A stretch of DNA of 42,195 nt, taken from contig JALWQS010000136.1 in the NCBI GenBank assembly GCA_027083015.1, forward strand, positions 1 to 42,195, written 5' to 3'. A program made the position numbers and the translations under genes. The notes beneath the pieces are model-generated. The model was not told where the DNA came from and searched no databases. It saw only the letters and a program-made list of their open reading frames with translations. Positions 777-38,200 of this stretch are shown one piece after another (positions within the stretch are counted from its first letter, which is position 1; each line of letters starts with the position of its first letter). The DNA is from Candidatus Woesearchaeota archaeon. GTDB lineage: Archaea > Nanobdellota > Nanobdellia > Woesearchaeales > UBA11576.

Positions 777-1589
777 ATGAGTAAGTATCACAAAAAGACT
801 GGTTGTAAGAAGAAGGATTGGTTAGTGAAACCTGTCGGTAAGAAGGGTTTTATAGCTGATGTTATCGTTGATTTCTGGGCATACATAACTTTTGTTCTTG
901 TGATCATTGTCTTTGCTTTTCTTTATAAGCTGGTGGCTAAGTCTTCTATGGAACGCTTGAGTGATTTTAGGGGTGTTACTTGGTCTAATCATCTTGCTAG
1001 TGTTTATCTTCGTACGCCTATTGAGATAGGTGATACTGATCTTTCTATGGCTGAGCTTATAGCTTTGTATGATTATAATCAGACTCATGAGCGTGTTAAA
1101 GAGACTAAAGCTAAGAAAGAGTCCTGGACCGATTTAGCCGCTGCTCTTAAGTCCACTAAGGAGTTGCTTATGGGCAATTCTATCCTTAAGGGTTCTAGGG
1201 GTCCTTTGGCTGATGGTCTCTTCTCGGTCACTGATGATTTTATTGAGGATAATTTTGACGCTTTTGATACTTGTTATCTTTTTTATATTAAGGGTAATGG
1301 TTTTGAGTATATGAATTGGGGTTCTTTGTCTAAGTGTAAGGCTTATGCGCGGACTCGTGCTGAACATGGAGTTTTTGGTTTTAGTGTCGTCCAGTCGGAT
1401 CTTACTATTGATAATTTCCTTCAGCTTTTGGATGATGTTCCTAAGGAGTCTTATCTGACTTACATTCCTGCTATTGATCCTAGGGAGAAACCTATTGAAT
1501 TGTATGTTGTTTATGATTTTGAGAAGATCTTGAGGCTTAAGGATCAGACCAGCATGTCTGATGATAGTGAGAGTGAAGAGTATGTTTAG
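777..1589 (+). CDS. hypothetical single-pass membrane protein (270 aa), possible class III (pilin-like) signal
   Basis: Basic N-terminus, then KKG|FIADVIVDFWAYITFVLVIIVFAFL, and an acidic C-terminal tail. The stop overlaps the next gene's ATG (ATGTTTAG at 1582-1589). No family recognised. Confidence 0.6.
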   Translation: MSKYHKKTGCKKKDWLVKPVGKKGFIADVIVDFWAYITFVLVIIVFAFLYKLVAKSSMERLSDFRGVTWSNHLASVYLRTPIEIGDTDLSMAELIALYDYNQTHERVKETKAKKESWTDLAAALKSTKELLMGNSILKGSRGPLADGLFSVTDDFIEDNFDAFDTCYLFYIKGNGFEYMNWGSLSKCKAYARTRAEHGVFGFSVVQSDLTIDNFLQLLDDVPKESYLTYIPAIDPREKPIELYVVYDFEKILRLKDQTSMSDDSESEEYV

Positions 1590-8302: not shown

Positions 8303-8350
8303 TGTTTGGGTGAAAGATGAAGTTAAGTATGGAAGAAAGATTGGTGTAAT

Positions 8351-18600: not shown

Positions 18601-19533
18601 CGCTGGGTCCCAGTGCGAGAATAGTTTATAGTCTTTTGACATGTTGAAGTCCAGTACGTAATCGTCGTACATTGACATGAATGTCGCTAGTTCTACTATC
18701 TTCTTCAGTCTTACTGGTATTCTTTTGTGGAAGTCTGCTACTCTCATCACTGGTTGTCTTCCTCCTACTTCTATCTTTACTGGTATGTAGGCGTCTACCC
18801 ATATGTCTGTCAGTCCTAGTCTTACTGATACGTTCACTTCTCCTGTTGGTGTGACGTTGTATCCTGTTTCTTCTCTTATTGCTGTCCAGTTTGTGCAGTT
18901 TGGTATCTTGTTGGCTACGTATTGTTCTAGTTGCCATTGTGTTGATAGTGTGTCTGTGTATGAGTTGGCCAGGCAGATTACTGTTTGTATTCCTTTTGCT
19001 TTTCCGAACAGATATGGGCTGTTTGGTCCGTTGGTGTCGCATAGTTTTCTTAGTTTTACTTCTCCGAATCTTCCCCAGGTTGCGAAGTCTAGTTCTGGTA
19101 CTTGTTTGCTTCTTCCTGTTCCTCCCGGGTATCCTGGCGGATATGGGTATATCGTGTTGTTGTCTAATGGGGGTAGTGTTTCTCCGTATGATACTTTTAT
19201 CGTCTTGTATGGTGGTCTGTATTGTAGTTGCATGTACTTGTTGGGGTTTGGTGCTGGTCCTCCTTCGTAGTTGTAGATGTTTCCTCCTTGTTGTCCTAGG
19301 TAGATCAGTCCTTCTTCTGCGTTTTTTTCCATGCATTGTCCTACGTAGTAGGGTATTGATCCTGATTTAAGAAGGTCTGTGATGAGTTTTTCTGTCGGCG
19401 CTTCTAGTGTTGCTGTTCTTAACCTGTTGTTTGCCCAGTATATCATCACGAATACTGCTACCATGAGAATTCCTAATAGCATGAACATGGTTATTTGCGC
19501 TTTTTTTGACCTCTTTTTTTTGTTTTTTGTCAT
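15631..19533 (-). CDS. giant (1300 aa) surface protein with a class III (type IV pilin-like) signal, a PKD-like domain and a Cys-rich C-terminal third
   Basis: N-terminus KKRSKKA|QITMFMLLGILMVAVFVMIY fits [KR][GA]|hydrophobic prepilin-type sites. PKD-like block DPDEDNLTYYYTGW...GPHNVTVWVCDEGGLCDY. Many NxS/T sequons. Contains EIDNDCDGETGCYDNDC (about 16136-16190). ATGA overlap with the upstream wHTH gene. Confidence 0.8.
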   Translation of the reverse strand: MTKNKKKRSKKAQITMFMLLGILMVAVFVMIYWANNRLRTATLEAPTEKLITDLLKSGSIPYYVGQCMEKNAEEGLIYLGQQGGNIYNYEGGPAPNPNKYMQLQYRPPYKTIKVSYGETLPPLDNNTIYPYPPGYPGGTGRSKQVPELDFATWGRFGEVKLRKLCDTNGPNSPYLFGKAKGIQTVICLANSYTDTLSTQWQLEQYVANKIPNCTNWTAIREETGYNVTPTGEVNVSVRLGLTDIWVDAYIPVKIEVGGRQPVMRVADFHKRIPVRLKKIVELATFMSMYDDYVLDFNMSKDYKLFSHWDPAMKISVKTPLKAIGLWDDLITIEDSASVMNGENYVYQFVRENRYPTLDRIGGLDDVNWSDYDIVVMENSTITIDPNPYTDKIDDRPEFQKKHIYDPDEDNLTYYYTGWKATCDEKYDYEHNKEDTSCSRKEPTHPSRYFRFPRSIEQKNPAEEMPRKWTTSDAYKTTRRNATYNTTHDDIGPHNVTVWVCDEGGLCDYQKVRILVLDYPQLRINGTNPYSKQIPYYYASKEDYYRIDASGSTEPRYTPMNGYSISDDKEPFEYILTDILAVLTLPQQPPDMARHIAYIDKYNFTKANCNGIPCVHWINLSARAVNVPPARMNVTVYQCLPYTNNENPLAKYMWPYNKTDPWLSSHLCCSPGQEWEDKFEVPKDVPTGEQTSIYFRYKVNLMDTENDEMEKIEIYKDGNLLGELPFSLTTDPVRRAVILNGLGLTSYDITDQRITLSFATEGNYTIKQTAAIQKEPYGTYEKPSKICYGGTPKIGSIYGMQIKDYDPEMTGAEIMGETRIPQGNPWQTYFNDIIEETFSRHCSGTRGNICNGPADMTITSVKGCDDKKTGEIETCQGPNPALKTPQEITIGGPCNDDSDCETDKGYTPPGKCVEGKCHQYKGNLGRTAFDCYKYTDDTYEHTFNITREDGTEANGTCNAAPACSDDPNKYDFSKEEGRYLLQGATCEAGECTKPLGNAKDCYQYNGLSQAILGSDPYCTDAVEDKHLYSRNWTCKKASGECSGQKNSDPDSAEKLCEACRSSQLMGGEWTNGKCCGDDAGEGGFPYNIEGLNPKAPYSNNAGRYGKEVCDDYYGNEEIDNDCDGETGCYDNDCISSNYAFLRNNEWNNYLNKEGKLCCNQKSQCKQFLDPSSNSDDGVECKSDNTCDCLPVGATEARATITTFPATIKTCVASYDEIIQETSDIFDRLFTITQNSQAERTFQLIVKDIDGGEECKEKVTLLVNDNNIRADSLKTIQNLGTVFTIKFKNLATEDCLVKVRIT

Positions 19534-19988
19534 GTTCTCTTTTTTAGTGTGTAGTATTGTGTTTGGTTGTTTAGTGGTGTTCCTTGTATCTTTTTCAGTT
19601 CTTTTATCTTTTCGTTATTTAGGTTTTTTATTGCTTTTATTCCTTTCTTTGTTTTTATCACGAATATCGTTCCTTCTAGTATCAGCTTGTCGGTCTTCTC
19701 TTTTTCTTTCTTGTTCAGTCTGTTGTATTCTTCCATGGCGAACAGTGGGAATATCTCTTCTTCTTTTCTTACTTTGAATTTTCTCAGGTTTGCTTCTTTT
19801 TCTTCTGTAAGTATCTTTTCTTTTGTCATCTTGTTGATGTGTCTTGTTAGTGGTCCTGCGCTTATGTTTAGGGCTCTTGCTATTCCTCTCAGGTGCATTG
19901 CTGTGTTTTTGTTGTTGTAGAATAAGTTCAGTATCTTGTATTCGTTTTCTCTGAATATTGTTCTCATTGTTGAAACGATTGTTTTCAT
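19530..19988 (-). CDS. winged helix-turn-helix transcriptional regulator (ArsR/MarR-like), 152 aa
   Basis: YKILNLFYNNKNTAMHLRGIARALNISAGPLTRHINKMTKEKIL has an HTH-plus-wing pattern. No TM segment. The stop overlaps the giant gene's start (ATGA at 19530-19533). Because the TATA-like palindrome sits only about 12 nt upstream of ATG 19988, the true start may be Met8 (19967). Confidence 0.6.
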   Translation of the reverse strand: MKTIVSTMRTIFRENEYKILNLFYNNKNTAMHLRGIARALNISAGPLTRHINKMTKEKILTEEKEANLRKFKVRKEEEIFPLFAMEEYNRLNKKEKEKTDKLILEGTIFVIKTKKGIKAIKNLNNEKIKELKKIQGTPLNNQTQYYTLKKRT

Positions 19989-20062: not shown

Positions 20063-20779
20063 TCAGCATTCTTTAGTAAGTTTTACTCTTAGCATCTCTG
20101 TGTATCCCATGACTACTTCTTTTGTCCCTTTGCTTATGTTCCTGTATTTTTCTACCTGTTCTTCCTTGACTACATCTTCGCACACTTCTTTGGTCGTTGG
20201 TAGCAGGGTGTTTTTTGGCATTCCTGTTTTTTCTGTATTGTTTGTGAAGTCTGCTCCTATATCGACTAATGGGTCGTATTGCGTGTCTTTCATCAATGGT
20301 ACGATCCTTGATGAGTGAGGTTCTACCAGTAGTTTCATTGGGTTTTTGCTTCTTTTGACTTCTGTTCCGTTATAATAGTCTATCTTATCCAGATATACCA
20401 TCTTTAGTTCGTCATAACCGTTATACACGGTCATCTCTCTTCTTATCCAGTTTGTTTTTCCTTCCACTAATGGCGTGTCAAGCCATTCTTTTGGTCCTAG
20501 TTTTATGAGGAATTTTCCCCATGGTATCTCTATCTCTTCGTTTTTTTCTGGATTGATGGTTTCTGTATGGCATTTCTTTTCTGTTCTTTTTTCTGTCACT
20601 GTGTATGCTTGTGTTTCTATTCTTGGCGCTACCTGTTTTATCTCTTTTAGAACTGTGGATTTTTCTTTGTTTATTGTACATTTGCCGCATCCTGTGAGGG
20701 TTAGTGATACTATCAGAAGCGCTATAAATACCAAGAACAGCCTGGATACTGTCAGAATTCTTTCTTGTCTAACCCCCAT
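20063..20779 (-). CDS. lipobox-containing exported protein (238 aa), hypothetical
   Basis: Signal peptide with lipobox LTLTG|C. It overlaps the upstream CE4 gene by 11 nt. No family recognised. Confidence 0.65.
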   Translation of the reverse strand: MGVRQERILTVSRLFLVFIALLIVSLTLTGCGKCTINKEKSTVLKEIKQVAPRIETQAYTVTEKRTEKKCHTETINPEKNEEIEIPWGKFLIKLGPKEWLDTPLVEGKTNWIRREMTVYNGYDELKMVYLDKIDYYNGTEVKRSKNPMKLLVEPHSSRIVPLMKDTQYDPLVDIGADFTNNTEKTGMPKNTLLPTTKEVCEDVVKEEQVEKYRNISKGTKEVVMGYTEMLRVKLTKEC

Positions 20780-24863: not shown

Positions 24864-24895
24864 GCTTATTGTTTGGGCTTCAGCAAGTTTTCGCC

Positions 24896-24906
24896 TTTTA
24901 TTTTTT
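24896..24906 (+). terminator. oligo-T tract downstream of radA
   Basis: TTTTATTTTTT lies 33 nt after the radA stop, and further T-runs continue to about 24950. Archaeal terminators are typically oligo-T. Confidence 0.35.
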
Positions 24907-25051
24907 GTTCTTACTTTTTGTTCTTATTGTTTTCTTTCTTGTTATTTTTTGGGCTTCTCTGCTTATTTGAGATTGTTTACGCGAAACTCTTGAATATATA
25001 GAAAATATAGAAAAAGATCATTAAAAAATTTCTAAAGATTTTTCAGGACTT

Positions 25052-26026
25052 TTATCCTCCGACGTGTTGTACTGTCAGCGTCTTTTGTATGTACTGGTCG
25101 TAATCGTATGTTAGGTCTATTCTTACCAGTTTTTCTATGTCTGTCGGGTTGTTTATTGTTTGTGTGCACCTTATCTCTCTTGCTCCGTTGAGTAGTGTTG
25201 CGTCTCCTTCATAGGTGCTTCCTGATGCTGCTCCGTTCTGTAATCCTGAACAGGTCAGTCCATCGGTAAGTCCTGTATCTATCTTTACGTGTACTTTATC
25301 TTTGTCTGCGAATTCTTTGCTGCATCCTGATCCTTCTTTATGTACGGTTCCTGTTCCTTTATGCTCTACTTTGAATACGAATGCTACTTTGTTTGCTGAA
25401 CTTACTGATTCTCTGAATGAGGTTACTTGTACTGGTGCTCCTGAGTTTTCTACTGGTTTTTCTTGGTTTATCTCGCATAGTTTTCCTGAGCTTCCTGTTG
25501 TCCCAAGTATGTCTTCCAGTACGCATAGTTTTGTGTTGGCTACTGTTCCGTATTTGTAACAAACATCTGCCCGCACATTATACTGGACGCTTCCTGCTAT
25601 TGTTTTTTGGTGTACGAAGCTGTTTCCTGATGCTGGAAAGTCCAGGCTTATTGTTTCTCCTTCTACTTTTCCGCCTGATGCATCTATCTGCGCTCCTCGC
25701 AGTCCGGTATCGGGACTTTCTGTCAGGTCTGACGCGCTTACTCCGAAATCTGCAGGGTCTATTCCTGTTATGCTTGCTTTTACGTCTGCTCCGTTTTCTA
25801 TGTTATGTTCTCCTACGTTTTTTAGTACTAAGCTGATCGCGAATGGTTGATCTTTATCCATGATCTGGTCTGGAAGGCTTCCTGGAGCGAATGATAGGTC
25901 TAATCCTTGTGTTCCTCCTACGAATCTTGCTCCTGCTGGGCCTGTCTCTTTTTTTTCGTTTCCCGAACATCCTGCTAAGAGTGTTAGGATTACCAAAAGC
26001 ATGATTGCAACTTTTAACTTCCTCAT
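25052..26026 (-). CDS. lipobox protein, envelope-module paralog A (324 aa)
   Basis: Signal with lipobox LLAG|C and an AAGGAGG SD. Shares five ordered sequence blocks with 26077-27015 and 27116-28270 (for example GTQGLDLSF, LKNVGEHNI, CYKYGT..KLCV, SGAPVQVTS, RIDLTYDYDQYIQK). Confidence 0.75.
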   Translation of the reverse strand: MRKLKVAIMLLVILTLLAGCSGNEKKETGPAGARFVGGTQGLDLSFAPGSLPDQIMDKDQPFAISLVLKNVGEHNIENGADVKASITGIDPADFGVSASDLTESPDTGLRGAQIDASGGKVEGETISLDFPASGNSFVHQKTIAGSVQYNVRADVCYKYGTVANTKLCVLEDILGTTGSSGKLCEINQEKPVENSGAPVQVTSFRESVSSANKVAFVFKVEHKGTGTVHKEGSGCSKEFADKDKVHVKIDTGLTDGLTCSGLQNGAASGSTYEGDATLLNGAREIRCTQTINNPTDIEKLVRIDLTYDYDQYIQKTLTVQHVGG

Positions 26027-26076
26027 TTTTTTAACCTCCTTGATTATGCTCTTCTTATGCTCCTTGATTACGTTCT

Positions 26077-27015
26077 TTATGCTCTTCCAAAGTCAAGGTT
26101 TTCTATCTCTACCTGTTTAGATATTGAGTTTTTGTAACCATATACCAGTTCTATCCTTAATGGTGTTTGGTATGCTTGTCCTTGTGTGGATCTTGGTGTT
26201 TGGCAGAATATTGTTGCTTTGCCGTTCACCAGCCTTACTTCATTGTTTGATGGTTGGCAGGTTACTGGTTCTCCGCTTCCTAATGATACCATATATTGTA
26301 TTTTGTTTATATCGTTGTATGTTAGTGATCCTGGACAGGAGTTTAATGCGTTGATGTCATAGGCCATTCCTTTTCCTGCTCCTCCGACATTTGCTATGTG
26401 TATCCTGAAGAACATGCCTCTTGGCGTTGCTTGGCTTTCCACGCTTTCTACTGCGACTGGTGCTCCTTGGCTTCCTGTTCCTATGACTTTTTGTACGTAG
26501 CATGCTTTGTCGCTTACTGTATCTTGAGGATTGGGATCTATACATACCATTGGTGTTGCATAGGTCTTGTATGGGTAGCACGCTGTCAGTAAGAATGTTG
26601 GTTTGTAATTCGGCATTTCTGGCGGTAGTACGATGTTTTGTGCTTCCATCTGCACTGTTGTGTACCCTCCTTCAGGGTTGAATTGTGTTTTTCCTTCTAG
26701 AGGCATCTGTAGTGCGAAGGGGTTTGGTGTTATAGGCAGCATTGTTGCGTCATAGCCTGATAGGTAGAACATTGCGCTTTGTACTGTTGTTGTTCCCCGA
26801 TTCTTTACTTCTACTAGGAACGTCAGTGGTCCTCCGGTGTATACTTTTACTGGTGGTTGTTCTGGTGTGAATGTCATGACCAGTCCTTCTGTTCCTGTTG
26901 CTGTGAATGCTGCGCTTGTTGGAGGTTCGTTTTTTCCTCTCTGGTAACCGCAGCCTGTTGTTATCAGTAGCACTAGAAATAGTGAGAATACCCATATTTT
27001 TTTGTTTGTTGCCAT
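26077..27015 (-). CDS. lipobox protein, envelope-module paralog B (312 aa)
   Basis: Lipobox ITTG|C. Paralog blocks GTEGLVMTF, VKNRGTTTV, CYPYKTYATPMVCID, QGAPVAVES, RIELVYGYKNSISK. Confidence 0.75.
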   Translation of the reverse strand: MATNKKIWVFSLFLVLLITTGCGYQRGKNEPPTSAAFTATGTEGLVMTFTPEQPPVKVYTGGPLTFLVEVKNRGTTTVQSAMFYLSGYDATMLPITPNPFALQMPLEGKTQFNPEGGYTTVQMEAQNIVLPPEMPNYKPTFLLTACYPYKTYATPMVCIDPNPQDTVSDKACYVQKVIGTGSQGAPVAVESVESQATPRGMFFRIHIANVGGAGKGMAYDINALNSCPGSLTYNDINKIQYMVSLGSGEPVTCQPSNNEVRLVNGKATIFCQTPRSTQGQAYQTPLRIELVYGYKNSISKQVEIENLDFGRA

Positions 27016-27050
27016 TTTAAGCCTCTTTTCTCATATTTCTCTGTTTTTGT

Positions 27051-27067
27051 GTATAAAAATGTTTCGG
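27051..27067 (-). promoter_or_regulatory. BRE/TATA-like box (minus strand CCGAAACATTTTTATAC)
   Basis: About 40 nt upstream of ATG 27015, with an AGAGG SD in between. Resembles the GAAACATTTATAAAT box at 14489. Confidence 0.4.
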
Positions 27068-27115
27068 TAAAATCATAAGAATCGGTGAAAGCGCCTTTAT
27101 TAGCTCTTACTTGTT

Positions 27116-28270
27116 TTATCCTGGACAGCAGACGTTTGTTTTTCCTCCCGGACAGTATCCTACCTTACATCCCAGTCCTTCTATGCAGCTTGCATCTCCG
27201 GTTGGGCATTCAGCGCTGACGTCTTTGCAGCTGTAACCTTCAAATGTTGAGCTGCATTTTCCTTCACCTTTTGTTCCTGTTCCTATCATGTTCTGACAGT
27301 CTGCTGCTTCTCTTCCTCCTGGTGGTGGTTGTATCTTTATCTCTTTTATCAGTTTTTGTAATATGTAATACTTCATCTTTATCACTAATGGTGTTGTGTA
27401 TGCTCCTGCGTTTTTGTCTACATATGTGCTGCATATGATCCCTGATCCTTTTTCTTTGAGTTTCATGGTTTTTGCTGGTTTGCAGGTCAGTTTTTTTCCT
27501 CCTAAGCTTACTTCTATTTCTGCTTCGTTGATCTTTGTTACATCATCGCATGCTACGTTTGGGTTGAATACTGATACTCCTTTTCCTGCGAATTTCTTTA
27601 TGTTGATGCTTATCTCTACTTTTGTTTTTTCTCCTGTTTCTATGATTTGCGGTTGGCTTATTGACCAGACTCCTACTGGCCCTCCTTGTCCTCCAGATAA
27701 TGTGTATGCTCTCATGTCGCATTCTTTCTTGTCGCCTTTTTGTCTTTTGTAGTATAGTGTGTCTATGCAAATATCCTGTTGCGCTGTTGTTTCGTAATAA
27801 TAGCAGGCCATTGCTTGTAGTTTTGCTGTGTAGTTTTTTCTGAAGCTTCCGTATGGTATGCATACGCTTTTCATCGGAAATGTCAGTACATCTTCCTGTC
27901 CTTCTTTTAGGTATTGGCTTTTTCCTTCCAGCATGAAGTATTTGGTGTTTGAGTCTGTGAATTTGAATGCTTCTGCGTCTGGTACGCTTATTTTCATCTC
28001 TGCTCTGTCTACTATATTGTAGGCACCCATATTCTTCACTTTTATTCCTAGACTGAAGTCGGTTCCTGAATACATGGAATCTGGTGGCATCCCTCTCATT
28101 ATTGACATGCTTATTCCTTGTGTTCCTTCTCTGAAATCATACGTGGGTATGTCTTGTCCTCTTCCTCCGAAGAACTTGCTGCATCCTGTAATTAGCAGAA
28201 ATGTCATCATGCTTAATGCCAGGATTATTGTCATGACCCTTTTGTTTTTGTTGGTTTTTTTGTTTCTCAT
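27116..28270 (-). CDS. lipobox protein, envelope-module paralog C (384 aa) with an extra Cys-rich C-terminal tail
   Basis: Lipobox LITG|C. Paralog blocks GTQGISMSI, VKNMGAYNI, CYYYETTAQQDICID, QGGPVGVWS, VIKMKYYILQKLIK. Has a C-terminal CxxxC-rich about 60-aa extension. Confidence 0.75.
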   Translation of the reverse strand: MRNKKTNKNKRVMTIILALSMMTFLLITGCSKFFGGRGQDIPTYDFREGTQGISMSIMRGMPPDSMYSGTDFSLGIKVKNMGAYNIVDRAEMKISVPDAEAFKFTDSNTKYFMLEGKSQYLKEGQEDVLTFPMKSVCIPYGSFRKNYTAKLQAMACYYYETTAQQDICIDTLYYKRQKGDKKECDMRAYTLSGGQGGPVGVWSISQPQIIETGEKTKVEISINIKKFAGKGVSVFNPNVACDDVTKINEAEIEVSLGGKKLTCKPAKTMKLKEKGSGIICSTYVDKNAGAYTTPLVIKMKYYILQKLIKEIKIQPPPGGREAADCQNMIGTGTKGEGKCSSTFEGYSCKDVSAECPTGDASCIEGLGCKVGYCPGGKTNVCCPG

Positions 28271-28372
28271 AGGATTCCCTTGCCCTTCTTCTTTATGATG
28301 ATTTGCCTGTTTTACTGTTCTTAGTCAATACATTTATATTCGCTATTATACTGCTTATTCGCTCTTTATCTT

Positions 28373-31123
28373 TTATTTTGCAGGGGTTAATATGCTGTCA
28401 CAGAGGAATATGGCCGGATTTTTTGGTGTGTTCTCTGCTCCCCAGGACCAGCCTGCTGATTTGAATGCTGATACGACGCATGTTGGTATGTCTGTTTTTA
28501 CCTCTGTCCCTGTCTGTCCTCCTGGGTTCTTGGCAGGATTTATCTCTATTTGTATTCCGTACGCTGCTAATGAGGGGTATTGCGGGAAGTCTGGATCTGG
28601 CATGTTTTGGTATCCTTTGATCGGTGGTTTTTTCTCAAAATAATCTGCTCCTTCTTTGCAGTTCTGTTGGATGTTGCTTTCTGCCTCTTCTAGTTTAGGT
28701 TTTGCTTTTTTGTTTATTTTTATCTTTTGTCCGAAGAAGGTGGTTTCTTCTAGGTTTGTTCCTGGCTTTCCTAGTTGCTTTTGTAGTTGCTCGTGTATTG
28801 CTTTCAGCACATCATCTGAAGAAGCAGCTTCTTCTTTTTTCACGCCTAATTTTGTTGTTAAGCTGCTTGTGCTTCCTTTTACGGTTACGGTTTTCGCTTT
28901 TACTTTTGGGCATTTTTTTCCGTCTGGTGTTAGTATATCGACGATATTTTCTTTCTGCACTATATAATTGTAGCTGACATGTCCCAGGAATGTTATTCTT
29001 TGCGCTGTTCCTATTATATCTTCTGGTGATCCTGAATATTCAAACTGGCAGCTTGGCATCACTTTTTGCAGTCCTCTTCCCAGGTCTTTGAAGCTCAGTT
29101 CTTTCCAGTAGTCTTTTCCTAAGGTCATCTTGTTTCCGCTTATCTTCCATTTTCTGCATAGTTCTGGTACAGGTCTTAGATTCTTGGGTATTATTATTGT
29201 CATCTCGTTGACGCTTCTTAGCCAGCCGTCAAGTTCGTTTTCTAATGCGACGCTGAGCTTGAGTTTTTTCTGTGATTTGCCTGTCGTATCTATGCCTATG
29301 AGTGAGCTTTGTTCTGTTATCATGAACAGTGCTATCGGTCCTTTGTCTGATATTGACCTGTAATCTTCTATTTCTGGATGTAGTTCTTTCATTGCTGATT
29401 GTACTGCTGATAGACTTCCTAGTTCTATGTCTTTTGATTTTGCGTATTCTTTTAGTTCTTCCTCAAGGTAGGTGTTGTCTATTATGTAGTTGTTCAGTAC
29501 GGAATCTGTTGTCAGGTCGTCTGCTTCTACTGTTATTGTTACTGCCATGTCTCCGCAGGTATACACGTCAGGATAACAGGTTATTTCCTCGTCAAAATTA
29601 TCTCCCGATAAGGATGTTGGACTTACTGTTTGTGGTTCTCCTGCATAGAAGTTTACATCTCCCCCCACCTTATCTGATCCTGCGAGTTTTTTGAAGCTTA
29701 GTTCTCGTGGTTGCATGTGACAGACCACTTTTGCTTTCATAGGTCTTTTTGGGCTGAACCCATGTACTCTTGCGCTTATCTCTAATGGTTCGTTTTGGGT
29801 TATCTTTTTCGGGTTTGGTAGGTAGGAGTCTTTTATCTCTATTCCGACGAACCTTTTTTCGTTCTCTACTTTTCCTTCTACTCGCTGTCCTGTTGCTTGT
29901 TGTATGCTTTTTTTGTATTGTGTTTGGAATCCTCTTACTGCTTTTTGTATGAAACTTTGGCTTTCGTGCGCTCCTTCTGCTGCTGTACCTTTGGCTCCTT
30001 GTGCTGATATGGATGCTACCTTTCCTGCGACCCACGCTGCTGGGCTTCCTATCGCTGTTCCTGGCACCCCTATTAGTCCTACTATCAGAAATAATGCGAT
30101 TGCTATTTTTCCCATCCCTGATGATAGGAATCCTTTTTTTTCATCTTCTAATCCTGCTATTCCTGCAGCGAAGTTTATTTTGTTGGGTTTTCCTGATCCT
30201 CCTGTTCCTCCCGCGCTTGATATTCCAGAACTTCCAGAACCTCCTGATATGCCGGAACCGCCTGTCGTGATTTTCGTTGTTGCTGGTTTGCTTGAGGCGC
30301 CTCCTGATCCGCCTAAACCTCCAGAGCCTCCTGAACTTCCCGAACTTTCTGTTTTGGGTATTGCTTGTACGCTTCCTGGTGTTCCCGCTGATTGTTTTAT
30401 CTGTTGCGCTTGTGATTGTAATTGTTGTGATTTTTGTGATTCGCTTACTATCTTTGTTCCTAATTGTTGGTTTGCTTGTTCCATTTTCTTGTCTCGAAAA
30501 GCATGTCTGACTCCTTCCATGATGCTTAATGGTATTCCTACAACGTCTGCTCCCGGTATTGCTGCTGCTGCGTCTATTCCCGCATCAAGTTTTTCGTCTC
30601 TTTGATAAGCGCTTCTTGCTGCTTCTGCTTTTGCTATCTGTGCTTTTTTTGCTGCTATCTCTGCGTCTCGTTGTTTCTTTGCTTCTTCTAGTTTTTTTAG
30701 TGATTGTTCTAATTGTGCTTTTTGGTTTTTTAGTGGTGTAGTATCATATTCTGGTGGAGCATGTTCTATCTGTTGTTCTACCCGGTCTATTTCTTGTTTC
30801 ATTTCTTTTATCTGTTGTTCAAGAGGTTTTTCTCCTTCTTCCATGCTTTTTTCTTCTGTCTTTTCTTGTTTTGCTTGCGCTCCTAGTTCTTTTGCTTTTT
30901 GTATGTCCGACACTGCTTCGCTTAGCTGTGATGCTACATCTTTGATTCCCATACCTCCGGGTTTTGATGCTGGTTCTCCTCCTGCTCCAGGAATTCCTTT
31001 TGCTTCGCCAGCTTTGGCTGGCATTTTCTTCGGGATTTTTGTAGGGATCTTTACTCCTGCTTTGTTAAGTAGTAATTTTTTCAGAATTCGTTTTCCTTCG
31101 TCTATTGCTGACAGACTGTTCAC
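28373..31123 (-). CDS. 916-aa bitopic membrane protein: cytoplasmic coiled coil + Gly/Ser-rich region, TM, ectodomain related to the three lipoproteins, C-terminal degenerate M15-like module
   Basis: No N-terminal signal. Heptad-rich charged region (EQQIKEMKQEIDRVEQQIE...), a GSGG low-complexity stretch, and TM helix IAIALFLIVGLIGVPGTAIG. The ectodomain ends RITFLGHVSYNYIVQKENIVDI (compare RIxLxYxY in the lipoproteins). The tail SLAAYGIQIEINPAKNP...GWSWGAEN resembles M15 blocks without the metal ligands. The start is GTG 31123 as listed in the track, and it directly abuts a GAGG, so the exact start is uncertain. Confidence 0.7.
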   Translation of the reverse strand: MNSLSAIDEGKRILKKLLLNKAGVKIPTKIPKKMPAKAGEAKGIPGAGGEPASKPGGMGIKDVASQLSEAVSDIQKAKELGAQAKQEKTEEKSMEEGEKPLEQQIKEMKQEIDRVEQQIEHAPPEYDTTPLKNQKAQLEQSLKKLEEAKKQRDAEIAAKKAQIAKAEAARSAYQRDEKLDAGIDAAAAIPGADVVGIPLSIMEGVRHAFRDKKMEQANQQLGTKIVSESQKSQQLQSQAQQIKQSAGTPGSVQAIPKTESSGSSGGSGGLGGSGGASSKPATTKITTGGSGISGGSGSSGISSAGGTGGSGKPNKINFAAGIAGLEDEKKGFLSSGMGKIAIALFLIVGLIGVPGTAIGSPAAWVAGKVASISAQGAKGTAAEGAHESQSFIQKAVRGFQTQYKKSIQQATGQRVEGKVENEKRFVGIEIKDSYLPNPKKITQNEPLEISARVHGFSPKRPMKAKVVCHMQPRELSFKKLAGSDKVGGDVNFYAGEPQTVSPTSLSGDNFDEEITCYPDVYTCGDMAVTITVEADDLTTDSVLNNYIIDNTYLEEELKEYAKSKDIELGSLSAVQSAMKELHPEIEDYRSISDKGPIALFMITEQSSLIGIDTTGKSQKKLKLSVALENELDGWLRSVNEMTIIIPKNLRPVPELCRKWKISGNKMTLGKDYWKELSFKDLGRGLQKVMPSCQFEYSGSPEDIIGTAQRITFLGHVSYNYIVQKENIVDILTPDGKKCPKVKAKTVTVKGSTSSLTTKLGVKKEEAASSDDVLKAIHEQLQKQLGKPGTNLEETTFFGQKIKINKKAKPKLEEAESNIQQNCKEGADYFEKKPPIKGYQNMPDPDFPQYPSLAAYGIQIEINPAKNPGGQTGTEVKTDIPTCVVSAFKSAGWSWGAENTPKNPAIFLCDSILTPAK

Positions 31124-31195
31124 CTCTTTGTGCCTGAGCGCTTAAATGATTAAATAAATGGTTAAATGAGTGGGTTGTTCTTTGTTTCTTCTTTC

Positions 31196-32443
31196 TTACT
31201 CTTCGTATACTTCTAGGTTTTGTATCTCTAATGGAGTTTCTGGAGATATCTTTATTGCGTTGTTGCCTTCTGTTACGTAATCGTCAAGATTTTTCTCAAA
31301 CTCCCTTTCTGTCTGGTACAGGTTAGTCTCTCTTCCGTTGATGTTTATCTTTGCTGATTTCGTATCTTCTGAATCTACGAATGTGATTTTCATCTTTACA
31401 TGTAATTGGCCGTTTTTTAATGCGTCCATGTCTTTTTTCGGCATCTCAAAGAAGTATGTTGGTTGCACTACTGCTTTCATCTCTGATGTTATCCTTATGA
31501 GGTCTATCAGGTAGCTTCCTTCTTCGCTTTCAAACACGATCTCATTTTCTCCTTCCCTTAGGATTTCCGGAGGGAACTCTATTGCTACTCTTCCTCCGCA
31601 ATCAGGTATGGCGTAATGTATTGATTTTTGGTTTATAAGAACATTGAGTTTTCCTGTTCTTCCTGTTGTGCAGTCTGGTGTGAATCTTAGTATTGATCTT
31701 TTGACATTTGCTTTTTCTGTCGCTGATACTATGAATATGTTTCTGCTTTCTTGTCTGCTTGTATCTTTTATGTCTGCTGTTACTTGTAGGTTTTCCATCT
31801 GGAATATGTTTCTTCTCCAAAATGCCCATCCGGTTTTTTCTGCTTCAAACTCTATATTGTTTGCTCCGTTTAGCAGGTAATTATCCGGTAGTTTTATCGG
31901 TTCAGGATTCTCTTGTGATATTGTTCCTGAATAGACTTCATTTCCGTTTAATCTCACTATCAGCGTTCCTTTGTGTTTTGAGCTTCTGAATGTTAGTAAG
32001 GCATTCTTTGTGTTTTTTACATCGTCTACATTGAAGCTTATTGTTGCTTTTTTTTGCCCGAATATGCTTGATTTTACGTATATGCTATTGGTATTCTGTA
32101 GTACCTTTGATTGTGTTTTCGAGTATAGAGTTAGCGCTGGTATGTTATGTTCTATCTTTTCTGCTTTTATGGGGCTCAACACTCCTGGACTTGCTTTTAA
32201 CAATGTTCCTTTTATTGCTCCTCCTGCGCTTGTCATGCTTGTTGTTGTTCCGTTCCCTTCTAGTATCTGGTCTCTGTAACTTGGTGGTATGAATAAAAGA
32301 TAGAATATGATCAGTAATGCTAATACCGCTACTAGTGTTGCTGCTGATGAAGCGTCTTGTGCTTTTTTAGAAATTTTTTGTTTAAGGATGGTTTTTTTAA
32401 TAGGTCTTTTTTGAGAATTGACTATTCTGGGGGCGGGTTTCAT
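31196..32443 (-). CDS. 415-aa exported or membrane protein with a class III-like signal and three repeated beta-sandwich-like modules
   Basis: ISKKA|QDASSAATLVAVLALLIIFYLLFI has the same KKAQ tetrapeptide as the giant protein. Three repeats follow the pattern L.F....G.L.V.(L/I)NG..(V/I)......(I/L)....(L)..G.N.I.F. AGGTGA SD. Confidence 0.7.
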   Translation of the reverse strand: MKPAPRIVNSQKRPIKKTILKQKISKKAQDASSAATLVAVLALLIIFYLLFIPPSYRDQILEGNGTTTSMTSAGGAIKGTLLKASPGVLSPIKAEKIEHNIPALTLYSKTQSKVLQNTNSIYVKSSIFGQKKATISFNVDDVKNTKNALLTFRSSKHKGTLIVRLNGNEVYSGTISQENPEPIKLPDNYLLNGANNIEFEAEKTGWAFWRRNIFQMENLQVTADIKDTSRQESRNIFIVSATEKANVKRSILRFTPDCTTGRTGKLNVLINQKSIHYAIPDCGGRVAIEFPPEILREGENEIVFESEEGSYLIDLIRITSEMKAVVQPTYFFEMPKKDMDALKNGQLHVKMKITFVDSEDTKSAKININGRETNLYQTEREFEKNLDDYVTEGNNAIKISPETPLEIQNLEVYEE

Positions 32444-32599
32444 ATGATGTCACCTTTTTCTTTAAATACTGACACTTCAAAATGAATATCTTTATATATT
32501 TAATTCTTTCTGTTTTTTTGGGTTTAGAACCTCTGAAAAGGGTTTTTAGGCGTGTTAAAATAAGATGAGCAAATTTTTTGTCTTATTAGCTGATTATGA

Positions 32600-34032: not shown

Positions 34033-35118
34033 TTATCTTGTTAGCACCTTTCTCACTTCTCTTACCATCATCAGCTCTTCGTTTGTTGGTATTACCATGA
34101 CTTTTATCTTGCTTTCTTTTTTTGATATGATTGTCGCGTTTTTCTTGTTTCGCTGTGTATCTATCTTTATTCCTAAGTAGTTGAAGTGGCTCATGACTCT
34201 TTCTCTTACGTAATGTGCGTGTTCTCCGACTCCTGCTGTCCACACTATTGCATCTGTGCCATCCATCGCTGCTATGTATGCTCCTATGTATTTCACTATC
34301 CTATAACAGTAGACTTCAAATGCTAGGTGGTATTGGTCTTTTTTGAACCTGTTCTTGTGTATGTCTCTCATGTCGTTTGTTCCGCATAATCCTAAGAGTC
34401 CTGATTTTTTGTTTAGCAGCTCGTCCATCTCTTTTGCATTAAGTTTTTCTTTTTTTTGTAGGTAGGTGATTATTGCTGGATCTATATCTCCGCTTCGTGT
34501 TCCCATCACCAACCCTTCCAGCGGTGTGAATCCCATCGTTGTATCGACGGATTTTCCTCTATTGATTGCGCAGATGCTTGCTCCGTTTCCTATGTGACAG
34601 GTTATCAGTTTTATCTCTTCTAACGGTTTTCCCAGTTCTTTTGCTGCTTCGTGTGCTACATATTTATGTGACGTTCCATGGAAGCCGTATCTTCTTATCT
34701 TGTGTTTCCTGGCTAGTTTTTTTGGTATTGCATAGGTGTGTGCTCTGTCAGGTATTGTCTGGTGGAATGCAGTGTCGAATATGGCTACCATCGGGACTCC
34801 AAAAAGTTTTTTGCATATCTTGATCCCTTTTACTTCTGGTACGTTATGTAGTGGCGCTAGTTCTGATATCTTGTCCAGTTCTTTTATTCTTGCTTCTGTC
34901 AATAATGTGCTTTCTGAATGCGTGCCTCCGTGTACTACCCTATGTCCTATTGCGTCTATCTTTATCTTTTTCTTTTCCAGCAGTTGGATTATCTTTTTTA
35001 TCCCTTTTGTGAAGTCTTTTACTCTTTCTTGTAATCCTCGCAGTATTCTTTTTTCTTCTCTGTAGACGTCGTATTTTATTGAGCTTGATCCTATGTTCAG
35101 TATGAGTATTGTTTTCAT
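34033..35118 (-). CDS. ackA: acetate kinase
   Basis: ILNIGSSSIKY, GHRVVHGG, LAPLHN, FDTAFHQT, YGFHGTSH, CHIGNGASI and GTRSGDIDP are the canonical Ack/ASKHA blocks, in order. Confidence 0.9.
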   Translation of the reverse strand: MKTILILNIGSSSIKYDVYREEKRILRGLQERVKDFTKGIKKIIQLLEKKKIKIDAIGHRVVHGGTHSESTLLTEARIKELDKISELAPLHNVPEVKGIKICKKLFGVPMVAIFDTAFHQTIPDRAHTYAIPKKLARKHKIRRYGFHGTSHKYVAHEAAKELGKPLEEIKLITCHIGNGASICAINRGKSVDTTMGFTPLEGLVMGTRSGDIDPAIITYLQKKEKLNAKEMDELLNKKSGLLGLCGTNDMRDIHKNRFKKDQYHLAFEVYCYRIVKYIGAYIAAMDGTDAIVWTAGVGEHAHYVRERVMSHFNYLGIKIDTQRNKKNATIISKKESKIKVMVIPTNEELMMVREVRKVLTR

Positions 35119-35133
35119 CTTTTCCCTCCTTTT

Positions 35134-35290
35134 GATTGTTCGGATTGAATGTTTTGATTGGATTGATTGTATTGGTTGGCTGTTTTGGAAGATTGTTTAT
35201 GATAAACTATTTAAATCCTGCTTTCTCTGGCTCTTGCTCAGTGATTGCTTGGTTCGGATTACTTGACTTACATTGGTTGATCCCGGATTG
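35134..35290. promoter_or_regulatory. GATTG-rich divergent control region between ackA and acs
   Basis: Eight top-strand GATTG copies (35134, 35143, 35156, 35161, 35165, 35191, 35243, 35286). TTCGGATT occurs twice (35139-35146 and 35253-35260). A TATTTAAAT box lies at about 35209-35217. Confidence 0.3.
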
Positions 35291-35349
35291 TTTGATCAGA
35301 ATTATTGTTTTTCGATCATATGCAATATTATGTTTTTGAGGTGAGTTTT

Positions 35350-37104
35350 ATGGAAGATGGTGTGGAAGAGAAGACGGAAGATAAGATTATTGTCAAGGAT
35401 GTTTCTAAGCTTAAGAAAGAGCCTAATATGAAGGATTATGATGAAGCTTGTGCTTCTTTCTCTGAAGATACTTATAAGAAGGAGATTGAATTTTTTGATG
35501 ATGGCACTCTTAATGCTGCTTATAATGCTGTTGATCGTCATCTTAAGACTCCTTTGAAGGATAAGACCGCTCTTGTTTGGATCGGTGATGATAGCGAGAA
35601 GACTTTTACTTATAAGGAACTGGCTGAAGAGTCTAACAGGTTTGCTAATGTTTTGGCTAAGCATGGTGTTCAGCGTGGTGAACGGGTCTTTCTTTTTCTT
35701 CCCAGGGTTCCTGAGTTATATATCTCTTTTCTTGGTGGTATGAAGTTTGGTGCTGTCGTCGGTACTTTGTTTGCTGCTTTTGGTCCTTCTGCGATTCTTG
35801 ATCGTGTCGGTAATGCTGAAGCTTCGGTTCTTGTCACTAGTCCTGAGCTTAAGCCTCGTATTGATGAGATCCGTGATCAGATGCCTGCTCTTAAGCACAT
35901 AATCGTGACTGGTGATTATGAGCCGGGTGATGGCGAGTTAAGTTTTGATAAGGAGATGGCTTCTGTAGGTCCTGATTTTGATATTGTCCATATGCCTCCT
36001 AAGGAACGGGCTTATATGCTTTACACTTCAGGTACTACTGGTAAGCCTAAGGGCGTTATTCATTCTCATTATGATATTCTTCATCAGCATCTGACTGCTA
36101 AGTGGATTCTTGATCTTCATGAGGATGATGTTTATTGGTGTACTGCTGATCCTGGCTGGGTGACTGGTATCGCTTATGGAATTCTTGGCCCTTGGTCTAA
36201 TGGTGTCACTAGTATTGTTGATGGTCGTCGTTTTGATCCTGAGAATTGGTATAAGGTCATCCATGATCATAAGGTTTCTGTCTGGTATACTGCTCCTACT
36301 GCTATCCGTATGATGATGCGTGAAGGTCCTGAGCTTGCTAAGAAGTATGACCTTTCTTCTCTTAGGTTTTTGGCTTCTGTTGGTGAGCCTTTGAATCCTG
36401 AGGCTGTTTGGTGGTCTCTTGAGAATATTGGTCTTCCGTTCCATGATAATTTTTGGCAGACTGAGACTGGCGGTATCTTGATCGCTAATTATGCTTCTAT
36501 GGATATTAAGCCTGGTTCTATGGGTAAGCCTTTCCCGGGTATAACTGCTGCTATCGTGGATAAGGATGGTAATGAGAAGCCTGTCGGTAAAGCGGGCGAT
36601 TTAGCTATCAGGCCGGGTTGGCCTTCTTTGATGATTGAGATCTGGAAGAATAAGGAGAAATTTGATGAATATTTCCGTAATGGTTGGTACATCACTGGTG
36701 ATAAGGCTCGTGTTGATGAGGATGGTTATTTTTGGTTTATCGGCAGGGCTGATGATGTCATCAATACTTCTGGTCATCGTGTCGGTCCTTTTGAGATAGA
36801 GTCTGCTTTGATTGAGCATCCTGCTGTTGCTGAAGCTGGTGTTATCGGTAAGCCTGATGAGCTTCGTGGTGAGATCATTAAGGCATTCATCACTCTTCAG
36901 AAAGGTTATGATCCTTCTGATGATCTTATGGAAGATATAAAGAAGTTCATTAAAAAACGTCTTGCAGGTCATGCTTATCCTAAGGAGATTGAGGTTCGTG
37001 ATTCTTTGCCTAAGACCCGTTCTGGTAAGATCATGCGTCGTGTCCTTAAGGCGCAGGAGCTTGGTGAGGATATTGGTGATACTTCTACGCTTGAAGATGA
37101 TTGA
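35350..37104 (+). CDS. acs: acetyl-CoA synthetase, AMP-forming (AcsA-type acyl-adenylate enzyme)
   Basis: GAGGTGA SD before ATG 35350; the track start at 35305 has no SD. Motifs YTSGTTGKPKGV, WQTETGG and GRADDVINTSGHRVGPFEIESAL, with a C-terminal PKTRSGKIMRR. Confidence 0.85.
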   Translation: MEDGVEEKTEDKIIVKDVSKLKKEPNMKDYDEACASFSEDTYKKEIEFFDDGTLNAAYNAVDRHLKTPLKDKTALVWIGDDSEKTFTYKELAEESNRFANVLAKHGVQRGERVFLFLPRVPELYISFLGGMKFGAVVGTLFAAFGPSAILDRVGNAEASVLVTSPELKPRIDEIRDQMPALKHIIVTGDYEPGDGELSFDKEMASVGPDFDIVHMPPKERAYMLYTSGTTGKPKGVIHSHYDILHQHLTAKWILDLHEDDVYWCTADPGWVTGIAYGILGPWSNGVTSIVDGRRFDPENWYKVIHDHKVSVWYTAPTAIRMMMREGPELAKKYDLSSLRFLASVGEPLNPEAVWWSLENIGLPFHDNFWQTETGGILIANYASMDIKPGSMGKPFPGITAAIVDKDGNEKPVGKAGDLAIRPGWPSLMIEIWKNKEKFDEYFRNGWYITGDKARVDEDGYFWFIGRADDVINTSGHRVGPFEIESALIEHPAVAEAGVIGKPDELRGEIIKAFITLQKGYDPSDDLMEDIKKFIKKRLAGHAYPKEIEVRDSLPKTRSGKIMRRVLKAQELGEDIGDTSTLEDD

Positions 37105-37165
37105 TGATGTGAACGATTAAGGTTTTTCTTGTATTGTTTTTATTATTTTTTGATGGTTTCCTGGT

Positions 37166-38200
37166 TTAGTTCTGGTTTTCTTTTTGTTGTTTCTCTTGAT
37201 GTTGCGCTTCTATCACTGTAAAGGCCGTTATGTGAACTATCTCTTCTGCTTTACATCCTCTGCTCAGATCATTTACTGGTTTATTCAATCCTTGCAGTAT
37301 CGGCCCTATTGCTTCTGCACTTCCGAAATAGGTGGCTAGTTTGTAGCCTATGTTTGCTGCTTGTAGGTCTGGGAATATTAGTATGTTTGCGTCTCCTTGT
37401 ATCTTTGCTTGTGGACATTTTATCTTTGCCACCCAGGGTTCTACTGCTGCATCTAGTTGCATCTCTCCGTCTATCACTAAGTGTGGCATCTCTTCTTTTG
37501 CTCTTTCTATGACGATATCTGTCGCTTCTATCATCTTCTTTGCTAATGGGTGGTGTGCGCTTCCTTTTGTCGAGAATGAGAGCATTGCCACTCTGGGTGT
37601 TATTCCGAATCGTTCTGCTGTCTTTGCTGTATCTAAGGCGATTCCTGCAAGGTCTTTTGCGTCTGGTTCTATTGTCACTGCTGCATCTGCGAATAGCATT
37701 ATCTCGTCTTTGTATTTTATGAAGAACACTCCTGATACCTTGTGGAATCGTTCATGAGTTTTTATTATCTGTAATGCTGGCAGTATTGTATGTGCTGTGC
37801 TGTGTATGGCTCCTGATACTAGCCCATCAGCGTCTCCTTTGTGTACCATCATTGTTCCGTAATAGATGGGTTCTTGCATGTATTCTTTTGCTTGTTCTGG
37901 TGTTAATCCTTTGTCTTTCCTTAGTTCTACAAATTCTTTTACGTAGCTGTCCAAGTAATTTTTGTTTTCTTCACAGGTATGGTTGACTATCTGTACTTGT
38001 TCGTGGTTTATTGTCAGTCCTAGTTCTTCTATGCGCTTCCACAGGTCTTCTGGTTTTCCGATAAGTATTGGTTTTGCTATTCCTTCTTGTAGGATCTTTT
38101 CCACGGCTTTTAGTGTTCTTTCTTCTGTGGATTCCGGAAATACTATTCTTTTAGGATCTGCTTTTGCTTGTTCCTTTACTTTTTCTAGAAAATCTTTCAT
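37166..38200 (-). CDS. pta: phosphate acetyltransferase
   Basis: PTA_PTB family blocks RIVFPES, YYGTMMVHKGDADGLVSGAIHSTA, FADAAV and ANILIFPDLQAANIGYK. Confidence 0.9.
   Translation of the reverse strand: MKDFLEKVKEQAKADPKRIVFPESTEERTLKAVEKILQEGIAKPILIGKPEDLWKRIEELGLTINHEQVQIVNHTCEENKNYLDSYVKEFVELRKDKGLTPEQAKEYMQEPIYYGTMMVHKGDADGLVSGAIHSTAHTILPALQIIKTHERFHKVSGVFFIKYKDEIMLFADAAVTIEPDAKDLAGIALDTAKTAERFGITPRVAMLSFSTKGSAHHPLAKKMIEATDIVIERAKEEMPHLVIDGEMQLDAAVEPWVAKIKCPQAKIQGDANILIFPDLQAANIGYKLATYFGSAEAIGPILQGLNKPVNDLSRGCKAEEIVHITAFTVIEAQHQEKQQKENQN

Follow-up and report, generated by a model that had tools for sequence, protein, structure and literature searches.

Organization of the Five-Gene Locus

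This study concerns a cluster of five genes in a stretch of 42,195 nt from Candidatus Woesearchaeota archaeon, an uncultured member of DPANN with very small cells; the whole stretch, at its full length, is referred to below as the window. Archaeal markers encoded in the window include RadA, an RPA-type single-stranded DNA-binding protein, Pelota and TrmB-type regulators. Five consecutive open reading frames (ORFs) on the minus strand span positions 25052–32443, with spacing of 50–102 bp between neighbors, and encode in transcription order the proteins p415, p916, lipoA, lipoB and lipoC. The gene order and coordinates given in a preliminary description of the same DNA were confirmed by the ORF list. 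The module is a widespread, unannotated and previously undescribed set of archaeal surface proteins of a known general kind. Its components and immediate borders are as follows.

31196–32443, minus strand: ORF for p415, a surface protein in which a prepilin-like signal and one membrane helix precede three beta-rich units giving jelly-roll (carbohydrate-binding-type) matches.
28373–31123, minus strand: ORF for p916, a membrane protein with a variable cytoplasmic N-terminus, one transmembrane (TM) segment, a conserved ectodomain and a lineage-specific tail.
27116–28270, minus strand: ORF for lipoA, 384 aa, with lipobox ITGC, a Cys-rich C-terminal tail and, by homology, two beta-sandwich domains.
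26077–27015, minus strand: ORF for lipoB, 312 aa, with a signal helix, a linker of about 20 residues and two tandem immunoglobulin-like (Ig-like) domains of CARDB type.
25052–26026, minus strand: ORF for lipoC, 324 aa, with lipobox LAGC, a full-length paralog of lipoA and lipoB with two beta-sandwich domains by homology.
32444–32599, no strand assigned: divergent intergenic region between p415 and Pelota, in which inspection of the sequence reveals an AT-rich TATA-like element and GGTGA ahead of the p415 start codon.
24864–25051, minus strand: region downstream of lipoC with several oligo-T runs, likewise found by inspection.

The intergenic region may act as a promoter, and the divergent Pelota–p415 arrangement is conserved among related loci. 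The oligo-T runs following lipoC likely serve the cluster as an archaeal terminator. Scanning the window for tRNAs and Rfam families returned no match.

Searches of Pfam and NCBIfam with the five proteins gave nothing above threshold. PDB sequence and profile searches with p415, lipoB, the p916 ectodomain, the p916 tail and the family profile returned no relative, and a literature search found no paper describing the cluster. These results support the assumption, already made in the preliminary description, that none of the five proteins belongs to a described family. The folds themselves, as judged from structural models, are not novel: Ig-like sandwiches of CARDB type are predicted for the lipoproteins, and jelly rolls of carbohydrate-binding type for p415.

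Conservation and Genomic Distribution

A pattern scan that took one genome per species detected module relatives in 251 species-representative genomes. The labels of the best 80 loci read Woesearchaeota, Nanoarchaeota or simply “archaeon”; many further loci are titled “uncultured Methanosarcinales”, which we take to be a mislabel. Named homologs of the studied proteins all come from Candidatus Woesearchaeota or Nanoarchaeota metagenome bins. The exact order Pelota (minus strand)/p415/membrane protein/lipoA/lipoB/lipoC is complete in 43 out of 82 loci. Nearly all of the non-complete loci display the same order cut by a contig end, a few possess a fourth lipoprotein, and in one locus the genes are dispersed. 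The suggested co-conservation and synteny of the genes is thus borne out by a fixed order in essentially every related locus of sufficient length.

In 197 of 198 comparisons, a lipoprotein has its best match in another locus at the corresponding position (lipoA, 65/66; lipoC, 66/66), suggesting that the triplication predates the radiation of these genomes and that all three copies have been kept. Three separately kept orthogroups argue for non-redundant subunits, and the comparison supports the view of the lipoproteins as ancient, non-interchangeable paralogs. Median identity to the window proteins amounts to 36–37% for p415, lipoB and lipoC, 27% for lipoA and 20% for the p916 core. The flanks consist of housekeeping genes (Pelota, RFC, aminoacyl-tRNA synthetase) and are more variable than the cluster; the downstream neighbor is RadA here and RFC in most other loci. 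Searches against viral contigs, PHROGs and PADLOC produced no match to the module families and no phage or defense link. Taken at the level of sequence comparison, these data support a lineage-specific, vertically inherited unit, co-conserved in a fixed order.

Expanded clusters occur in some distant relatives. Loci L049 and L065 encode four lipoproteins each; in locus L003 (positions 4702–9820) an extra lipoprotein paralog, followed by unmatched proteins of 853 and 500 aa, lies between the membrane protein and the lipoB ortholog. A Pfam search with the extra genes of expanded clusters and with longer p415 variants gave no functional hint.

Lipoproteins lipoA, lipoB and lipoC

All three lipoproteins begin with a basic, hydrophobic signal ending in a lipobox-type Cys (lipoA, ITGC; lipoB, TTGC; lipoC, LAGC), as is characteristic of lipobox lipoproteins. 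The lipobox is canonical in lipoA and lipoC and atypical in lipoB, which has T at position −3. A [GAS]-C pair closes the hydrophobic region in 63–65 of the 66 orthologs of each gene, the strict motif being present in 39–48 of the 66, and the lipobox Cys is invariant in two family alignments. Lipid attachment to this residue is predicted for lipoA, lipoB and lipoC.

Five ordered motif blocks, described earlier as common to the three proteins, are all present in their three-way alignment. BLASTP detects the relationship directly (E of 3e-25 for lipoA–lipoB, 1e-12 for lipoB–lipoC and 4e-9 for lipoA–lipoC), and profile-profile comparison with hhalign strengthens it to 1e-73, 2.5e-45 and 1.1e-38, respectively. 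On these alignments the proposed paralogy of the three lipoproteins is upheld, far above chance and beyond doubt.

Modeling of lipoB with AlphaFold2 from 70 sequences gave a predicted local distance difference test score (pLDDT) of 91 and a predicted template modeling score of 0.84. The model comprises a signal helix, a lower-confidence linker of about 20 residues and two beta-sandwich domains. A Foldseek search of the PDB with this model returned almost exclusively tandem Ig-like domains, including integrin alpha-V thigh/calf, macroglobulin (MG), PapD-like domains, WxLIP (E 2.6e-4) and transglutaminase barrels. TM-scores of these matches are low because the inter-domain angle differs.

A Pfam scan of 70 members of the lipoprotein family yielded CARDB (PF07705) as the sole recurring match, weak and found in 8 of the 70 (best E 5.9e-4). 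The window's own proteins do not match CARDB even at E ≤ 1, leaving them below its gathering cut-off. The weak matches accord with a VxxKNxG motif in the lipoproteins, which CARDB shares together with the Ig-like beta-sandwich fold seen in the lipoB model. Unlike CARDB, the lipoprotein family has a two-domain layout with its own specific GT[EQ]G, CYxY..C, QGAPV and YxY blocks. We regard the three as putative CARDB-type Ig-like surface lipoproteins lying outside any curated family. The family is large: 79 homolog clusters were obtained for lipoB, and an exhaustive search with the lipoprotein profile collected 3596 clusters at 50% identity (E ≤ 1e-3), 1801 of them below 1e-30.

The paralogy of lipoA with lipoB extends over about residues 1–320. 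The remaining residues of lipoA, ~320–384 (positions 27116–27310, minus strand), form a Cys-rich tail with about 11 of the protein's 17 Cys, which is missing from lipoB and lipoC. Lengths of lipoA orthologs range from about 283 to 410 aa.

Membrane Protein p916

A word-based search with whole p916 was swamped by its Gly/Ser low-complexity and coiled-coil part and gave two matches only. The family was recovered by synteny instead, by taking the ORF that separates p415 from the first lipoprotein in related loci. Such a mid-position ORF, roughly 430–1065 aa long, is present in every related locus, and 61 of the 63 were joined to p916 by an iterated hidden Markov model search. The following parts can be distinguished in p916.

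30392–30940, minus strand: residues 62–244, coiled-coil-like cytoplasmic region outside the family core, with similar regions in some relatives only.
30179–30346, minus strand: residues about 260–315, Gly/Ser low-complexity tract, evident from the sequence.
30047–30112, minus strand: residues 338–359, single strong TM helix (hydropathy peak 2.47 at residue 340).
28934–29959, minus strand: residues 389–730, conserved ectodomain core with two Cys pairs and YxY; column occupancy is 0.8–0.98 over most of it and lower in two short stretches.
28919–29371, minus strand: residues 585–735, distal ectodomain half, homologous to the lipoprotein C-terminal domain according to hhalign.
28424–28783, minus strand: residues 781–900, degenerate, lineage-specific M15_4-like module.

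Only residues ~389–730 are conserved across the family. Within this core, C468, C516, G633, C656, Y718 and Y720 are 92–98% conserved and C692 is 72% conserved; an N-x3-G motif is also found there. The last of the lipoprotein blocks was said to recur in p916, and indeed the YxY of RITFLGHVSYNY is 92–95% conserved in the p916 family. Both the p916 and the lipoprotein families show the order N..G, C, C, YxY. The distal half of the ectodomain (residues 585–735) matches the C-terminal domain of lipoA with 93% hhalign probability (E 2.7e-7, 90 columns). Matches to the corresponding domains of lipoB (40%, short, 36 columns) and lipoC (16%, over much the same span as the lipoA match) are lower. Comparison of the whole profiles of the two families reaches 39% (E 3e-4) over the QGAPV/N-x-G stretch. 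These results support a common origin of at least the distal half of the p916 ectodomain and the lipoproteins. Between the N-terminal half of the ectodomain and the lipoprotein N-domain, however, hhalign finds no signal. The notion of one ectodomain fold used four times, put forward in the preliminary description, therefore holds for half of the p916 ectodomain, the homology signal being confined to the distal part.

The part preceding the core is of a different character. In p916, about 335 residues of coiled-coil-like and Gly/Ser sequence precede one TM segment. There are three hydrophobic segments in close relatives and four to eight in most others, and the N-terminal regions of the family fall into unrelated clade-specific groups. 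A Pfam search with the membrane regions of polytopic relatives gave no family match. The cytoplasmic coiled coil with its Gly/Ser part, reported earlier for p916, is present here; it is not a general feature and is confined to this clade and a few others. The matches of residues 62–244 are weak and of coiled-coil type only (Enkurin, an SMC-related protein and LmuB); a defense link through the LmuB matches was rejected as coiled-coil noise. A conserved enzymatic or transport membrane domain was considered for the family as well and was rejected in view of the unrelated clade-specific N-terminal regions.

The absence of an N-terminal signal in p916, the 335-residue head before the TM helix and the occurrence of Cys pairs and lipoprotein-like sequence after it point to a likely topology with the N-terminus inside and the C-terminus outside.

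The M15-like module of p916 has a true paralog in residues 176–286 of the protein encoded at 6602–8302 in the window (BLASTP E 1e-13). Residues 854–897 of p916 align with the core of the M15_4 model (PF13539, VanY-like D-Ala-D-Ala carboxypeptidase) at E 7e-4 with 20.5 bits, below the 25-bit cut-off. Both M15_4-like copies (SLAAYGIQIE in p916 and SASSFGIALD) lack the histidine at the expected position of the motif, which we take to be SxHxxGxAxD. With motifs that are not intact and a score beneath the gathering cut-off, the p916 tail falls outside curated M15_4 and is probably non-catalytic. A degenerate M15-like module at the C-terminus, as originally suspected, is thus present in p916, but the C-terminal 185 residues that include it occur in at most 5% of the relatives compared.

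Lectin-Like Protein p415

p415 begins with a short basic segment that ends in SKKAQ and leads into a hydrophobic helix (residues 34–52). The principal parts of the protein are given below.

32282–32371, minus strand: residues 25–54, SKKAQ and a hydrophobic helix ending in PP, highly conserved in the comparison of orthologs.
31199–32209, minus strand: residues 79–415, three beta-sandwich units (79–228, 229–325 and 326–415) delimited by DSSP of the model.

The KKAQ signal pointed out previously is found to be prepilin-like: [KR][GAS]Q occupies this position in 46 of 58 orthologs, and [KR][GA]X in 9 of the remaining 12. A basic N-terminus, [KR][GA] before the cleavage site and a hydrophobic helix together make up the pattern of archaeal class III (prepilin-type) signals, to which p415 conforms in sequence. 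The helix and the ensuing PP-x-x-R motif are nearly invariant among orthologs. Such conservation of the helix goes beyond the needs of a plain anchor, suggesting a contact within the membrane.

The AlphaFold2 model of p415, built on 47 sequences, has a pLDDT of 87.7, exceeding 90 over most of residues 79–415. Apart from the N-terminal helices, the monomer is all-beta; the helices comprise residues 33–51 and 54–61, separated by the PP break, and are shorter than in typical pilins. Of the three internal repeats claimed for p415, units 1 and 2 are clearly related (hhalign 97%, E 5e-11); the sequence of unit 3 shows only a weak relationship to them, and the model presents it as another all-beta unit.

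Foldseek matches of the p415 model include galactose-binding-like accessory domains of GH35/GH2 beta-galactosidases and carbohydrate-binding domains of BcsB (E 8.5e-9 to 1e-4), corresponding to the beta jelly-roll fold of carbohydrate-binding modules (CBMs). Pfam gives weak CBM-like matches for 9 of 47 members (best E 5e-4), with CBM_35, GH2_N and CBM_17_28 in one member each. The window's own p415 matches no Pfam CBM family and stands outside curated CBM membership. Judging from the model, p415 would be a lectin-like protein with a prepilin-type signal. Its homologs form 59 clusters, none from outside Woesearchaeota/Nanoarchaeota; those that bear a name are called “hypothetical” throughout.

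A second protein of the window has a comparable N-terminus. The 1300-aa product of 15631–19533 (minus strand), without a Pfam match, starts with RSKKAQITMFMLLGILMVAV, a textbook prepilin-type signal containing SKKAQ as in p415; here SKKAQ directly precedes the hydrophobic stretch. Its gene adjoins that of a winged-helix regulator (19530–19988).

Comparison with Known Surface Systems

Archaeal surface layers (S-layers) with a membrane anchor, such as SlaA/SlaB of Sulfolobales, and lipid-anchored Ig-like glycoproteins resemble the module in that Ig-like beta-sandwiches are attached to the membrane either by lipid or by a TM segment that comes with a coiled coil. The module differs in its small two-domain subunits and four fixed paralogs in place of one large lattice protein. 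Its proteins have no Pfam, NCBIfam or PDB sequence match to S-layer families. The single S-layer structure among the Foldseek matches of lipoB is Deinococcus HPI, a weak hit with E 2e-3. Candidate S-layer proteins of DPANN have been described as Ig-like and without known homologs, and lectin-like surface proteins were also noted in these archaea (bioRxiv 10.1101/2023.10.27.564410). Lipoproteins and homologs of the lipidation enzyme AliA are reported to be common in DPANN (PMC12462473). The module resembles the reported DPANN surface proteins in being of an Ig-like and lectin-like kind and differs from them as a fixed five-gene set of small paralogous subunits.

SusE/SusF of Bacteroidetes and the WxL/Csc loci of Firmicutes likewise represent paralogous beta-sandwich surface proteins that are encoded by adjacent genes and presumed to assemble into a surface complex. 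However, these belong to another domain of life and another type of membrane, SusC/D, WxL and LPXTG partners are missing here, and there is no sequence relationship.

Like p415, BcsB and proteins with GH35/GH2 accessory domains combine tandem jelly-roll domains of carbohydrate-binding type, and BcsB is a membrane-anchored extracytoplasmic protein. BcsB is recognized by pairs of carbohydrate-binding and flavodoxin-like domains, a C-terminal TM segment and a BcsA partner, none of which arrangements is found for p415: its anchor is N-terminal and prepilin-like, it has no flavodoxin-like domains or catalytic domain, and no partner synthase is encoded in the cluster or close to it. The bindosome substrates of Sulfolobus offer another parallel, as non-filament surface proteins of sugar-binding type with a [KR][GA]-X signal. 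Sulfolobus sugar-binding proteins carry class III, prepilin-like signals. In contrast to the jelly rolls of p415, bindosome proteins have the substrate-binding fold of ATP-binding cassette transporters; moreover, the cluster encodes no Bas-type ATPase or membrane protein, and cleavage of p415 is a prediction.

Proposed Role and Alternative Explanations

We tentatively favor an explanation in which the five genes encode a lineage-specific cell-envelope or adhesion/attachment module with a lectin-like subunit. Its scaffold would be formed by four proteins whose related ectodomains lie on the external side of the cytoplasmic membrane: an N-terminal lipid and a flexible linker of some 20 residues tether three of them, and TM segments anchor the fourth. 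An extracytoplasmic location is backed by the lipobox-type [GAS]-C and the conserved Cys pairs. Since the paralogs are non-redundant, a domain is shared and the p415 helix is nearly invariant, we infer that these proteins associate on the surface as a defined hetero-oligomer built of tandem Ig-like domains. The p415 subunit would be inserted via its prepilin-type signal and highly conserved membrane helix, displaying three jelly rolls of carbohydrate-binding type, and may bind a glycan, either from the envelope of the cell itself or from the wall of a partner cell. Together, the five proteins could then act as a coat or an attachment platform. In this clade only, a long cytoplasmic coiled coil appears to have replaced most membrane segments of the membrane subunit, which in this organism would also have gained a degenerate tail resembling cell-wall peptidases.

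Several observations weigh against such a role. Ig-like and CBM-like folds are generic and fix no function, and hhalign detects no similarity between the N-terminal half of the p916 ectodomain and the lipoproteins. The richness in N-glycosylation expected of S-layer proteins is not found: only 2 sequons are present in the module ectodomains, where shuffling predicts about 13. The subunits are also small and, with the median identities given above for p415, lipoB and lipoC, fairly well conserved. S-layer and host-contact proteins usually diverge fast. All three traits (small subunits, fairly good conservation and depleted sequons) disfavor a classical S-layer. The variable TM part, in turn, weakens the earlier reading of the module as a trans-envelope conduit, and its lack of conservation makes a transport or synthase role of the membrane subunit unlikely.

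The same jelly rolls might instead serve a complex for glycan capture or uptake, similar to SusE/F or the Sulfolobus bindosome, in which p415 and the lipoproteins gather polysaccharide for a transporter. This role would fit the presence of a prepilin-like signal on p415, which is not a pilin, the adjacent genes for paralogous beta-sandwich lipoproteins and the fermentative lifestyle of the organism, with Ack, Pta and an AMP-forming synthetase encoded nearby. However, in the compared loci the cluster and its surroundings contain no conserved transporter, ATPase or glycoside hydrolase, the membrane part of p916-family proteins lacks conservation from clade to clade and is reduced to one helix here, and the lipoproteins give no CBM signal; we consider glycan capture unlikely. 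Assistance in assembly or export of an envelope polysaccharide, with p415 guiding the nascent glycan in a BcsB-like manner and the polytopic p916 family providing a channel or polymerase, appears very unlikely. It could draw on the Foldseek alignment of p415 with BcsB over ~410–500 columns (E 2.6e-6 and weaker), on the 3–8 membrane segments of most p916-family members and on a polysaccharide deacetylase encoded in the window. Nevertheless, the cluster contains no glycosyltransferase or synthase, the membrane regions are non-homologous across clades, match no Pfam family and can be reduced to a single helix, as here, and p415 lacks the flavodoxin-like domains and C-terminal anchor of BcsB.

A role of the two-domain Ig-like lipoproteins as PapD-type chaperones in the assembly of fibers from a pilin-like p415 is, in our opinion, highly improbable. 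The PapD-like, CsuC and VAP/MSP domains listed by Foldseek (E 7e-4 to 2e-3) and the prepilin-like signal of p415 hint in this direction, but these matches are weak, with TM-scores of 0.2–0.45, and stand amid many other Ig-like matches. Neither an usher nor a prepilin peptidase, assembly ATPase or platform gene is present in the cluster, the latter three not being conserved beside it either, and the helix of p415, short and interrupted by PP in the monomer model, appears unlike that of filament-forming pilins. Finally, the five could be independent surface proteins, neighbors by chance without a joint complex or function. The generic folds, and gaps between the genes that carry possible internal promoters, are compatible with this. 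We nevertheless find it quite unlikely, as gene order and positional orthogroups are kept across ~60 genomes, down to ~20–37% identity, and four of the five proteins share a domain, whereas chance neighbors would have been shuffled, as the flanking genes were.

Within the favored explanation, an attachment or envelope module, the occurrence in 251 species-representative genomes, the ~3600 lipoprotein clusters without a curated model and the housekeeping surroundings make the five-gene set a strong candidate for a core envelope component. A more far-reaching version pictures an obligatory envelope machine as a hallmark of Woesearchaeales: a heterotetrameric ring or lattice of CARDB type crowned by a lectin with a pilin signal, serving as an S-layer substitute and/or a docking platform for partner cells, and coupled in this clade to a cytoplasmic coiled-coil scaffold. 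We hold this version to be doubtful.

Woesearchaeota are among the most widespread uncultured archaea, and we know of no experimental work on their envelope or partner-cell contact. The module gives an example of archaeal lipoproteins as fixed, paralogous subunits and offers targets for envelope studies of uncultured Woesearchaeota. Should its members prove to be generic Ig-like surface proteins only, annotation would still gain three or four new domain families; the finding would carry greater weight if the five proteins were indeed the envelope or contact machine of Woesearchaeota.

Other Features of the Window

The window shows extreme strand asymmetry over its entire length (positions 1–42195), with T making up 40.6% of the plus strand and A 18.6%. 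In genes on the plus strand, 78.6% of the four-fold degenerate sites are T and 3.4% are A; in those on the minus strand, read on their coding strand, 70.3% are A and 5.3% are T. The opposite biases of the two gene sets indicate that the bias tracks the DNA strand and not gene orientation. It gives rise to many long spurious ORFs on both strands. Large whole-sequence AT skews also occur in some related loci (L061, −0.31; L076, −0.27; L004, +0.24).

Genes for acetate kinase, an AMP-forming acyl/acetyl-CoA synthetase and phosphotransacetylase are grouped at 34033–38200, so that the window also encodes an Ack–Pta pair. Pta–Ack adjoining Pelota is retained in several related loci.

A run of membrane-anchored or secreted enzymes is encoded at 1561–8302 on the plus strand. 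It includes a GDSL-type lipase (1561–3537, plus strand), a metallophosphoesterase with a C39-like peptidase domain (3534–5504, plus strand) and the protein with C39-like and M15_4-like parts (6602–8302, plus strand), a portion of which is paralogous to the p916 tail. This run could be a toolkit attacking a cell wall or membrane. Downstream, at 8351–12639 (plus strand), two large signal-peptide proteins of 522 and 907 aa have no Pfam matches, and 12644–14347 (minus strand) encodes a Cys-rich 567-aa protein with four putative metal-binding motifs of MopE type. Two more lipobox proteins without a family match are encoded at 14555–15604 (plus strand; lipobox YTGC) and 20063–20779 (minus strand; lipobox LTGC), and lipoproteins seem to be frequent in this organism.

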